Origin: a virus
Taxonomy: Duplodnaviria; Heunggongvirae; Uroviricota; Caudoviricetes
IMG/VR virus record: IMGVR_UViG_2547132279_000012
Location: 1 to 41,632 of that record
Reading direction: 5' to 3' (one strand)
Length of the DNA stretch: 41,632 nucleotides
Position numbers and translations under genes: made by a program. Each line of letters begins with the position of its first letter. The stretch's first letter is position 1. Shown here piece by piece: positions 4,044-7,536 of the stretch. The notes beneath the pieces are model-generated. The model was not told the origin of the DNA, did not search any database, and was given only the letters and a program-made list of their open reading frames with translations.

Positions 4044-4170
4044 TTTGTTCTCCACGTATATGCGCTGCACCGCGCTGAATTCTGGCAAAAAGAATCCCTC
4101 ACCATCCGGCGATTATTGAGTAAATTACGTTTCCATAAATGCCCCCGCAGGGGCATTTGCAGTAATGAAA

Positions 4171-5060: not shown

Positions 5061-5423
5061 TTAACGACCTGCTGCGCGGAGTTTTCCGTCAGGTTCACCG
5101 GCAAGAGTCAGTAACTGTCCCTGGTCTTCCTGCAGAATAGTCAGGCGACCACCGCGATTGACATACATCGGCGTTTCGGTGGTGTCTTCTTCGGAAATTT
5201 TCCCGCGGTTAGTCGGGCGAACATATGAGAGTTTGTGTTTGATTTTCACTCGGTTCTCATCAAACGGTTCGATTTCCAGGTTGAGCGAGACCTTACCTTT
5301 GGTTTTCGTGTTCATCACACCGGAAGCGACTTCACTGAGAACTGCGCCGATTTTGGTTTCAAATACGCCGCCGTCCAGCTCCCCGATAAATGCCTGCACA
5401 TCAGTACTGCGTTCGCTAGCCAT
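5061..5423 (-). CDS. YfdP-like small protein (120 aa, start MASERS...)
   Basis: Start at the ATG preceded by an AGGAG RBS; the upstream part of the longer six-frame ORF runs through the structured non-coding region and is not protein-like. Confidence 0.55.
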   Translation of the reverse strand: MASERSTDVQAFIGELDGGVFETKIGAVLSEVASGVMNTKTKGKVSLNLEIEPFDENRVKIKHKLSYVRPTNRGKISEEDTTETPMYVNRGGRLTILQEDQGQLLTLAGEPDGKLRAAGR

Positions 5424-5891
5424 TTTGCTGCTCCTCATCATATCGACCCTGCAAGGTCGGTTAGTTTCTCCACAAAACAGAGAAGAACACCTGCGGTGAC
5501 TGCCGCCCGGATGGATTGGGTTATGAGCCCGTCGTCCGGTGATGCTCTTCTCTGTTTTGTAAAAAGGACGGTACCAGCCGGAAGCAAGGGTACAAGCTGG
5601 TACCGCCAAGACTACACACAGCATAAAGTTGTGGTGCCGGGTGCCTCCCGGTGCCTGGCGAAGGTTGCACACCAGGCGGGTGGGTATCCACAGAAGGTCG
5701 ACTGTCAGCCTCAACCTTAACCCGCGTGCGCTGAGCCGCATTCACCACAACGCTAAGGATTCTCTCTGGTTGAAAATACTTAGCTGTTATGTGCCTGCTT
5801 TTAGCCACATCAGGCGAGGTGGACCTAGTTATTCCCCAACAACAAGGATTCGGTTAATCTGGTTATCCCCAACAACGCAAAAGGAAAAGAA
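5424..5891. other. GC-rich, highly structured non-coding region (candidate structured RNA or DNA element)
   Basis: No credible ORF in any frame; 15 bp perfect inverted repeat (5472-5486 / 5546-5560), 9 bp GGTACCAGC/GCTGGTACC hairpin (5570-5604), several further GC hairpins. Confidence 0.3.
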
Positions 5892-6326
5892 ATGTCCGGT
5901 AATATCTATACGCTGTACAAATCCCACTGTGAAAATGTTGGAAAGTATCGGGGCATTGAAATCAGTGGGGTAGTGTCATCAGTCGAAATAAGCAAAGTTG
6001 AATCAAGGGCAACATTACTTACTCTTTTGGACCTTGTCTTACATGAGCACCGGAAGAAATTCGGCACTCCCTATAATCAGTTGAATGGGAAAAAGGCTCT
6101 GGTTCACCTTATTCTGATGAAGCATCACTGGATGCCAAAACAGATTAATGAGATGAAATTTGATGAACTTCTTCTTTCAATTCAGGATGAACTCACACTT
6201 GATAAAATAAGCGTAACCGCCCAGAAATTTTTAGATTATCGAGACTGGAGATCACAAATTCATCACTTTGATGATTTTGACGAAAATGAATGGGATCCTA
6301 ATTTGTCTGCACAATATCTAAAGTAA
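5892..6326 (+). CDS. Hypothetical protein (144 aa), AT-rich moron transcribed against the early-left operon
   Basis: ORF with ATG start just after the direct repeats and a purine-rich leader; lower GC than flanking genes. Confidence 0.5.
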   Translation: MSGNIYTLYKSHCENVGKYRGIEISGVVSSVEISKVESRATLLTLLDLVLHEHRKKFGTPYNQLNGKKALVHLILMKHHWMPKQINEMKFDELLLSIQDELTLDKISVTAQKFLDYRDWRSQIHHFDDFDENEWDPNLSAQYLK

Positions 6327-6504
6327 CATCCTGTGATAAAACCGTGATTTCCTGATCCAGTTTTTTTAAAGAGTCTATTGTTTCCTGTCGATAAGACAGC
6401 ACTTCACGAAGCTGGTTTATAGCTGCCAGCTTCTTTGTCATCCACTCATAAATTTCCTCATCTGTGTAGCCAGGCGCGACGATTTTGGGTTCTGTTTTGT
6501 GCAT
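6298..6504 (-). CDS. Hypothetical small protein (68 aa, start MHKTEPK...)
   Basis: GAGGAG RBS 8 nt upstream of the ATG; first gene position of the leftward early operon; 3' end overlaps the 5892..6326 gene by 29 bp. Confidence 0.35.
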   Translation of the reverse strand: MHKTEPKIVAPGYTDEEIYEWMTKKLAAINQLREVLSYRQETIDSLKKLDQEITVLSQDVTLDIVQTN

Positions 6505-6563
6505 TTCACATCTCCTCAAGTTATCAGTTACTTGTTGATGGGGACCAGATTGTTAAAGAGCTA

Positions 6564-6590
6564 AGCGTCCTGTAGGGCGCTTTTTTGTTG
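6564..6590 (+). terminator. Rho-independent terminator (plus strand)
   Basis: 7 bp GC-rich stem AGCGTCC/GGGCGCT with TGTA loop followed by TTTTTTGTTG. Confidence 0.45.
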
Positions 6591-6752
6591 CTAACGAATC
6601 ATCCTGGACTTCATATGCCCCAGGCGGCTACTTCGTGGGCGTCCTGCCTGTTCGTTTTTGACATTTACTGACTGCTTACGACACATGCACCGTGTTGCAA
6701 CCAGATTTTGTTGTAATCCGGTAGTTGGTCTGGAACAAAAGATAAAATTAAA

Positions 6753-6789
6753 TTGCGAGATATGCAAGTAATATTTGCGAGGTATGCAA
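6753..6789. promoter_or_regulatory. Putative OL operators (two 15 bp TTGCGAG-N-TATGCAA sites) with leftward early promoter
   Basis: Near-identical imperfectly palindromic 15-mers TTGCGAGATATGCAA (6753-6767) and TTGCGAGGTATGCAA (6775-6789) upstream of the leftward operon; same TTGC...GCAA motif recurs in the cI-cro intergenic region. Confidence 0.45.
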
Positions 6790-6800
6790 ATTTATAGGTA

Positions 6801-6843: not shown

Positions 6844-7536
6844 TTAATTATGTCTCTTAAGGGTTTGCGACTGACTGATTAAGACCTTTCCAAAGACCAT
6901 GAATCGGTGTTCGTTTTCGCTAGTAATTCCCCATTCACGGTAAATCTGGTTATCAGAAATCACCAGCAGTTTGTCAGGAATCATTTGAAGTCTTTTAACG
7001 TATATTTTGTCATCAAAACCAAAGACATATATACCATCACCATCAAACTGATTGATGCTGACATCAACGAAGATGAGATCTCCTGGCTCAATGGTTGGAC
7101 ACATACTGTCCCCACGAACGTTGATAACTTTGATGTGATTGGCTGGTCGTCCGCCGAACATTGATACAGCATTATCAGTTCTGTATTCGATGGCATGAAT
7201 CACATCAATGACATCACCGCCCTGGATAAGGCCATTTCCCGCACTGGCACTGATATCCAGCATTTCAATACGGAACACATCCTTCACCTGCGCAACATCC
7301 TCATTATTACTGTTTTTATATACAGTATTACTTTTGTGGGCAGAGGTAAAGAGATCAGCAATATCAACACCTAAGCTCTTGGCAATATTACTCAGTGTTT
7401 GTTCGGTAAATTGTTTTTGCTTACCCGTTTCTAAGCGCGAGATGTTCGCCGCATCTACTCCTATTGCTTCAGCGAGATCGGCGATTTTCATGTTCTTCGC
7501 TTGGCGAAGTTGTCTGACTCGGTTTCCTATGTTCAT
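6844..7536 (-). CDS. CI-type prophage repressor (HTH_XRE N-terminus plus LexA-like S24 peptidase C-terminus)
   Basis: N-terminal HTH (MKIADLAEAIGVDAANISRLETGK); C-terminal autocleavage domain with conserved Ser (GDSM) and Lys (VKRL); divergent from a cro-like gene. Confidence 0.9.
   Translation of the reverse strand: MNIGNRVRQLRQAKNMKIADLAEAIGVDAANISRLETGKQKQFTEQTLSNIAKSLGVDIADLFTSAHKSNTVYKNSNNEDVAQVKDVFRIEMLDISASAGNGLIQGGDVIDVIHAIEYRTDNAVSMFGGRPANHIKVINVRGDSMCPTIEPGDLIFVDVSINQFDGDGIYVFGFDDKIYVKRLQMIPDKLLVISDNQIYREWGITSENEHRFMVFGKVLISQSQTLKRHN

Follow-up and report, generated by a model that had tools for sequence, protein, structure and literature searches.

Most of the gap between two divergent early genes of a lambdoid prophage, from position 5784 to position 5442, was shown to encode conserved RNA structure on the minus strand. 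Three minus-strand RNA modules were distinguished in it, namely a pseudoknotted domain of the STnc100 family, a KilS/DicF-like small RNA (sRNA) with its terminator, and a long hairpin, and all three belong to or resemble known kinds of elements (STnc100/PasD, KilS/DicF, and leader hairpins of the RNase III type, respectively). Judged from sequence comparison, the gap is rather likely to be a non-coding leader of the early-left operon, in which a composite sRNA, a terminator and read-through transcripts processed by RNase III would be combined. Throughout, “the window” designates the whole stretch of DNA analyzed, i.e., 41,632 nucleotides.

Genomic Setting

The window is a lambdoid prophage of the SfV/SfIV/Kati type, and its positions 5424-5891 are 99.8% identical to phage Kati and 97.7% identical to SfIV. 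An earlier note on this DNA had singled out these positions as a GC-rich, densely structured non-coding region between divergent genes, and the flanking genes are indeed divergent: on the left lies a minus-strand gene (5061-5423; phrog_204), itself upstream of a DUF2303 (YfdQ family) gene, and on the right a plus-strand gene of 144 aa (5892-6326; phrog_5286). Farther to the right are found a 73-aa minus-strand ORF (6298-6519) and the gene of a cI-like repressor (6844-7536, minus strand), followed by cro- and cII-like genes. The 73-aa ORF and the plus-strand gene 5892-6326 converge and share 29 nt (6298-6326).

Repeats, Folding and Strand

All the repeats listed in the earlier note were found at its coordinates. 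The perfect 15-bp inverted repeat (5472-5486 and 5546-5560), with 59 nt between the 15-mers, extends to 25-nt arms that are 84% complementary and leave 39 nt between them; the hairpin GGTACCAGC/GCTGGTACC, given as 9 bp, is perfect over 10 bp (5569-5578 and 5596-5605); and the stems CCGGG/CCCGG (5637-5651) and CCTGG/CCAGG are helices P5 and P4 of the conserved RNA described below. An additional perfect 9-bp long-range repeat, GTTGTGGTG/CACCACAAC (5628-5636 and 5743-5751), encloses most of the GC stems and closes the domain. The gap is GC-rich as claimed (0.52-0.585 vs. 0.37-0.50 in its flanks), and the density of stems, which had been called unusual, exceeds chance when both strands are folded: the 468 nt give z = -5.6 against shuffled sequences on the minus strand, where 0 of 100 shuffles were as stable, and z = -2.8 on the plus strand. 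Because G-U pairs are common and the minus strand folds so much more stably than the plus strand, the structure is assigned to the minus strand and taken to act as RNA. The earlier note had neither assigned a strand nor told the three modules apart.

That note had left the choice between a structured RNA and a protein-binding DNA element. The first half stands, with an Rfam match, covariation in homologs, G-U pairs that can form on the minus strand only and an intrinsic terminator to support it, and the second half falls. Repeats acting on the DNA itself, whether as operators, as a site of recombination or as a cruciform among divergent promoters, would suit the location between divergent genes and the conserved direct repeats that the last ~110 bp carry upstream of the plus-strand gene. 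However, helices in the remainder are kept via G-U pairs, which in DNA or on the opposite strand would be A-C mismatches, the covariation keeps pairing and not sequence, a U-tract comes after one of the hairpins, and the operator-like repeats of the window lie elsewhere, by cI (~6750-6790). A DNA-level element is therefore rejected on the G-U pairs and the covariation, and we regard it as very improbable.

The statement that no frame yields a protein-like translation has to be qualified. An open minus-strand frame of 226 aa does exist (5061-5741); it is annotated in SfIV and Kati, and coding sequences are annotated over the region in mEp460, cdtI and K-12 as well, where the e14 prophage has the so-called YmfH. 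What survives of the statement is that the 106-aa extension of this frame has no Pfam or PHROG match, the family match beginning at Met 5423. Moreover, the frame is interrupted by four stops in ST64B and by a frameshift in e14, protein identity is 53% where DNA identity is ~78%, and the interior is replaced by unrelated cassettes in otherwise identical loci, whereas the real gene shows 60% identity in an unbroken alignment of residues 1-118. Both the extended ORF and YmfH were thus discarded as proteins for their want of family support, their stops and frameshift in relatives and a protein identity below that of the DNA, and a coding function is scarcely credible. Neither did the region align to any conserved coding gene, as a decayed gene might have done.

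A Pseudoknotted Domain of the STnc100 Family

The core domain (5754-5626, minus strand; ~125 nt) belongs to the STnc100/PasD family, in a subtype called W here. In a permissive Rfam scan of the window, STnc100 (RF02076) matched the minus strand at 43.4 bits (E = 6e-8) over model positions 1-206 of 206, the other matches being at chance level, including DicF (RF00039) at 19.4 bits (E = 0.17, for a threshold of 48). As 43.4 bits is just below the STnc100 gathering score of 47, a standard Rfam scan overlooks this copy, and at gathering thresholds the window returned a tRNA alone (1369-1441). The family architecture is nonetheless complete, with helix P1, hairpins P2, P4 and P5, and the conserved blocks GGUGAAU and CACCGGGAGGCACCCGGCACCA. 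This last 22-mer occurs once in the window (5653-5632) and has at least 120 matches in viral contigs; for the second conserved block at least 120 matches were obtained in genomes, and among the matches listed nearly all were from Enterobacterales. STnc100, EcOnc27 and PasD were reported to be Hfq-associated (PMC12711010; bioRxiv 10.64898/2026.05.13.724894).

From 5′ to 3′ on the minus strand, P1 (5751-5743 with 5636-5628) encloses the junction AAU (5742-5740), the P2 hairpin (5739-5724), one arm of the P3 pseudoknot (AAGGUUG, 5718-5712), which pairs with CAACCUU (5667-5661) in the loop of P4, P4 itself (5677-5670 with 5660-5653), and P5 (5651-5647 and 5641-5637, around the loop AGGCA, 5646-5642). 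Directly upstream of the core stands a further hairpin, GCUAAGUAUUUUC-AACCAGA-GAGAAUCCUUAGC (5752-5784, minus strand), an inverted repeat of 13 nt at 85% that is present in the MFE structure; from the boundary seen in contigs that lack the cassette, we infer that it would be part of the exchangeable cassette discussed below.

A five-helix covariance model, hereafter R1, was built on an alignment of 82 sequences differing by more than 20%, in which the window domain and 81 relatives align over their whole length. Standard pairs fill 90.5% of the alignment cells, compared with 41-48% when partners are slid by 1-3 columns, and the covariation score is 0.405 vs. ~0.09. Changes on both sides of a pair were seen in 7 of 8 pairs of P1, 6 of 6 of P4, 2 of 2 of the short closing helix P2a and 2 of 5 of P5. 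R1 scores 72.3 bits on the window, which is in the seed, and much the same on relatives outside the seed (73.1 bits in ST64B, 72.6 bits in 118970_sal3). While the helices covary, the junctions and loops (GGUGAAU, AGGCA) are near-invariant; this conservation exceeds what a stabilizing structure would need, a point against the composite-sRNA reading preferred below.

The P3/P4 pseudoknot is absent from the Rfam consensus structure of STnc100. Across 97 representatives, the mean duplex energy of P3 is -9.0 kcal/mol with the true partners and -6.7 kcal/mol with swapped ones (p = 1e-11), and the arms differ between W lineages while remaining complementary (AAGGUUG/CAACCUU, CAGUUAA/UUAACUG, GACUGACA/UGUCAGUC); per-lineage arm numbers are approximate, the automatic P3/P4 parser having misassigned a few sequences (Qin, e14, P1). 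A local hairpin AAGGUUG/CGACCUU, favored in the nested MFE structure, was considered in place of the pseudoknot and set aside: ST64B, read directly, has CGAUCCU at that place and keeps the pseudoknot partner CAACCUU.

No second copy was found in the PR or late operons of the window. A weak R1 match (4059-4169, minus strand; 11.8 bits, E = 0.19), located between the DUF2303 gene and the next gene and recurring in Kati and cdtI, is probably due to chance.

Distribution and Context of the Two Subtypes

Canonical and W copies are told apart by P2, which reads CCCCU-NNGCGG-NGGGG in the former and GCGGCUCAGCGCACGC in the latter, and they differ in their surroundings. A nearby sigma-70 promoter match of their own accompanies 46 of 214 canonical copies and none of 37 W copies, and a sigma-70 consensus scan of the window gave none upstream of the RNA. 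A terminator follows within 150 nt in 127 of the 214 canonical copies (median ~23 nt downstream) and in 12 of the 37 W copies. Genes next to canonical copies are esterase and holin-like genes at a distance of 150-330 nt, and one canonical copy lies downstream of stx2B in a late operon (PMC12370729). Tandem arrays of 2-4 diverged canonical copies, ~160-480 bp apart, were also observed on a Pantoea plasmid record and on other genome and viral contigs.

W copies reside in the PL operons of SfV, SfIV and ST64B, and in the ban operon of P1 and SJ46, 30 nt upstream of tciA. In E. coli K-12 they are found between dicF and dicB in Qin (62.5 bits; 34.4 bits with Rfam STnc100, for a gathering score of 47), where the dicB ATG is 25 nt downstream, between kilS and kilR in Rac (59.6 bits), and under the “ymfH” pseudogene of e14 (55.6 bits). 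Several other W copies are followed by a gene of PHROG 294, the Kil septation inhibitor. The K-12 domains in the 5′ UTRs of dicB and kilR (NC_000913, ~1649451-1649583 and 1418260-1418393, respectively) are unannotated; as read from the sequences, their flanks UGAAUUUUGUGAUG.../...CAUCACAAAAUUCA bring P1 to ~21 bp, which is long enough for RNase III.

The K-12 e14 ymfH (NZ_CP010440.1, 1959928-1960281), a frameshifted pseudogene according to PGAP, overlaps a copy of the RNA locus that is 93.6% identical, and is probably a spurious ORF. Over-expression of a “ymfH” clone was reported to trigger RcaT, the toxin of retron-Sen2 (bioRxiv 10.1101/2020.06.22.160242); since the ORF overlaps the RNA locus and looks non-coding, the trigger might be RNA.

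In Rac, Qin and P1, the W domain stands directly upstream of a gene with no terminator in between, a position that suits a role in cis better than the body of an sRNA. The pseudoknotted domain could accordingly be a sensor or leader, riboswitch-like or protein-binding, that gates the next gene and makes the sRNA a by-product. Its multi-helix junction and pseudoknot, with near-invariant junction and loop nucleotides among covarying helices, would be in keeping with such a function, as would what comes after it, i.e., either an intrinsic terminator, as in the window and in the canonical copies counted above, or a ribosome-binding site 24-43 nt away, these being the two usual expression platforms of riboswitches. 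The downstream genes include dicB, kilR and tciA, and the first two inhibit cell division and plausibly need tight control. Against this, no alternative terminator/antiterminator pairing was seen on reading the window sequence, canonical copies often have their own promoter, form tandem arrays, occur also on a plasmid record and have no constant downstream gene, and the context suggests no ligand or binding protein. On balance, we consider a cis-acting sensor or leader unlikely. A broader version is entertained tentatively, as possible rather than probable: the STnc100-type core would be more than the body of a base-pairing sRNA, namely a portable regulator that binds a specific partner, be it a ligand, RNA polymerase, an RNase or a protein of host defence or of another kind, and prophages would use it to gate sRNAs and the toxic early genes dicB, kilR and tciA placed behind it. 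Our best guess for the core is a portable structural or protein-binding module that may control stability or processing.

The KilS/DicF-like Module and Probable Cassette Exchange

Immediately 3′ of the core, the segment 5622-5561 (minus strand) is, by sequence homology, a putative sRNA homologous to KilS and located at the position that DicF holds in Qin. It opens with a single-stranded run, GCUGUGUGUAGUC (5610-5622), a candidate sRNA seed that is identical in K-12 KilS (13/13 nt), phiNP and Kp4866-6 and has one change in ST64B. The run is followed by an intrinsic terminator (5561-5607), whose GC-rich stem of 12-13 bp, GGCGGUACCAGC (5607-5596) with GCUGGUACCGUC (5578-5567), is succeeded by a C and by U5 (5565-5561); the MFE structure contains a 13-bp stem and then UUUUU, and the stem is kept by compensatory changes in KilS and in phage relatives. 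Together, the run and the homologous hairpin make up the 3′ two-thirds of K-12 KilS (b4833), an sRNA verified by RIL-seq and northern blot (PMC8175672). KilS lies in the 5′ UTR of kilR, whereas the gene downstream of the window module is phrog_204, not Kil.

What stands upstream of this module varies between otherwise matching phages. Among 80 viral contigs encoding a protein at least 99% identical to the product of the window's phrog_204 gene, the W domain was found in 60, a second domain (X) in 11 and another related one (Y) in 5; of the rest, 3 had nothing at this place and 1 had an unrelated sequence. X is the domain upstream of DicF, i.e., the 5′ part of the 190-nt DicF precursor, and it replaces W at the locus of the window in these 11 contigs; Y scores 21.5 bits with R1 in mEp460. 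All three are closed by the same arms, GCGUUGUGGU.../...CCACAAC, which suggests that they are exchanged by recombination. X and Y have their P1 arms, their junction and a P2-like hairpin in common with the STnc100 core, but differ from it inside. In the Qin locus, X had no Rfam match at E values up to 0.1.

The Long and Small Hairpins Ahead of the Next Gene

The 15-bp inverted repeat of the earlier note is the base of a long hairpin on the minus strand (5472-5560) that bears two apical hairpins. Its stem is 25 bp long, or ~30 bp if the U-tract of the terminator pairs with GGAGA, a length sufficient for RNase III (~20 bp or more of near-continuous double-stranded RNA). RNAalifold retains the stem in six phage sequences from E. 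coli/Shigella, Salmonella, Citrobacter and Klebsiella, among which three stem pairs and two apical pairs hold through changes on both sides. By analogy with known leaders, RNase III probably cuts within the long hairpin, before the next gene.

A small hairpin, CGACC-UUGCA-GGGUCG (5442-5461, minus strand; its inverted repeat was scored on the plus strand), sits just 5′ of the Shine-Dalgarno sequence GAGGAG (5437-5432) and the ATG (5423-5421) of gene 5061-5423. Relatives in Salmonella, Klebsiella and Citrobacter have GGCGG...CCGCC at this position, so that the structure is kept and the sequence changed.

The Right-Hand Part of the Gap

Within the gap, the look of a promoter or regulatory region appears to be limited to the right-hand ~110 bp (5782-5891), which probably serve the plus-strand gene 5892-6326. 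Upstream of this gene, the plus strand at 5785-5891 aligns to a Klebsiella phage and to the sequences that precede sieB in Rac and in Hafnia phage Pocitis76. Common to 5785-5891 and these sieB-upstream sequences are a conserved hairpin, CCAC...GUGG (5800-5821), and a pair of direct repeats, GTTAT(T)CCCCAACAAC, of ~15 nt and 34 bp apart (5828-5843 and 5862-5876); the repeats are candidate regulator sites.

Probable Transcription from PL and the Proposed Use of the Locus

Immediately to the left of the cI terminator of SfV is PL (TTGACA-17-CATAAT), which is directed towards the RNA and accompanied by repeated ATGTACCCA operators; in ST64B the interval from cI to the RNA contains no annotated gene, and the window has operator-like repeats, TTGCATA-N-CTCGCAA, next to cI (~6750-6790). 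From this position in SfV, the layout of ST64B and the repeats of the window, the RNA is most likely made from PL. PL and the RNA are separated in the window by the 73-aa gene and 435 nt antisense to the convergent gene, and read-through from PL might therefore be poor; because 6298-6519 and 5892-6326 converge, PL transcription must pass antisense through the plus-strand gene.

The PL leader has two further features. The motif ACAGGCAGGACGCCCACGAAGUAGCCGCC (6623-6651, minus strand) is kept in the window, SfV and ST64B, where its flanks differ. Just after a hairpin at 6563-6582 comes GCUCUUUAACAA (6550-6561, minus strand), identical to what we take to be the core of an rrn-type boxA. It was considered as the mark of a nut-like system and rejected as such: it is present as a single copy, and such a match turned up in 18 of 100 shuffles, so it offers only a hint that host Nus factors might be recruited.

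A related question is whether the RNA could itself be a processive antiterminator that, like put of HK022, binds RNA polymerase and replaces an N protein. The element precedes a strong terminator in the PL leader; in ST64B the RNA is followed first by sb37, whose product starts with MNDDRMTVVPDF and is, by eye, not arginine-rich as N is; and one contig has an operator-flanked promoter, TTGACA-17-TACATT, that points directly into a related cassette. The put RNAs measure ~70 nt, consist of two stem-loops and are found in both early operons (PMC9378689), while the window has a single copy with a five-helix pseudoknotted fold, and the HK022 immunity region showed neither BLAST similarity nor a model match. 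Members of the family also exist as stand-alone promoter-terminator units and in late operons past stx2B (PMC12370729), where antitermination would be purposeless. The HK022 put RNA was hence discarded as a counterpart on dissimilarity, model, fold and copy number, and a put-like role is quite improbable.

The reading preferred here remains that of a composite sRNA released from a processed leader. Leftward transcripts would start at the repressor-controlled PL left of cI, and many polymerases would halt at the terminator near 5561, freeing a composite minus-strand RNA of ~190-225 nt made up of the 5′ hairpin, the pseudoknotted domain and the KilS/DicF-like module. Once freed, it would act in trans via its KilS-like 3′ module, probably with Hfq, and processing may shorten it, much as the DicF precursor of Qin goes from 190 nt to 53 nt. 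The terminator would also limit entry into the downstream early-left genes, and transcripts that read through it would probably be cut by RNase III in the long hairpin, a cut that would set the 5′ end, the stability or the translation of the downstream mRNA.

Significance

As the STnc100 family, KilS and DicF are already known, the locus is not a new kind of element. What is new is the divergent W subtype, missed in the window by Rfam at gathering thresholds, the pseudoknot, the joining of the domain to a KilS-like module, its location ahead of kilR, dicB and tciA, and the conservation of the hairpin in the leader. At 90% identity or more, a close copy occurs in 1,914 of 5,426 complete E. coli genomes (35%), where the annotation reads either hypothetical protein or YmfH pseudogene; in K-12 alone the domain is present three times without annotation, once in e14 and once before each of the division inhibitors kilR and dicB. 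The identity of the RNA ties together STnc100/PasD, KilS and DicF, which had hitherto been treated separately. Furthermore, the conservation of the pseudoknot and the near-invariance of the loops point to a specific partner, which would provide a handle on how prophages restrain their toxic early genes and the sRNAs of these genes.

Comparison with Known Systems

With STnc100/PasD, the window element shares a full-length model match, the closing helix GGUG/CACC, the junction AAU, the P4 hairpin, an identical 22-nt P5 block (CACCGGGAGGCACCCGGCACCA), a 3′ intrinsic terminator after a short linker (12-13 bp stem and U5, 5607-5561) and the location in a prophage. It differs from them by its P2 (GCGGCUCAGCGCACGC instead of CCCCU-NNGCGG-NGGGG), its larger middle part, the lack of a detected promoter of its own, a 3′ part that is KilS-like and its place in the early-left operon rather than in the Q/stx/lysis region.

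The likeness to KilS consists of the 13-nt run GCUGUGUGUAGUC and of the GGCGG...CCGCC terminator hairpin with compensatory changes and a U-tract, and, as in Rac, the sRNA module adjoins a W-type domain and faces a sieB-type gene on the other strand. However, the order in Rac is KilS, W domain and kilR, whereas that of the window is W domain, KilS-like module, long hairpin and an unrelated gene, and the 5′ third of KilS has no counterpart in the window.

Like put of HK022, the window has a structured RNA in the PL leader before a terminator and a first downstream gene that is not N-like. What the long hairpin most resembles is the RNase III processing hairpin in the leader of the phage lambda N gene: both loci place a helix of at least 20 bp between a regulatory RNA near PL and the ribosome-binding site of the following early-left gene. 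Unlike the lambda site, to which it bears no sequence relation, the window hairpin has a conserved two-hairpin apex and is a putative site. Nothing specific was found in the literature on sRNAs of ST64B or on RNase III sites in the dicF-dicB interval.

Finally, although the 5′ sequence of DicF, UUUCUGGUGAC, is absent from the window, the arrangement as a whole recalls the DicF precursor, in which a structured domain closed by GUUGUGG.../...CCACAAC is followed by a short terminator-ended sRNA in a repressor-controlled prophage operon. The 190-nt form of DicF consists of an RNase III-cut structured domain and DicF, and is trimmed by RNase E to 53 nt (bioRxiv 10.1101/2023.04.14.536235).
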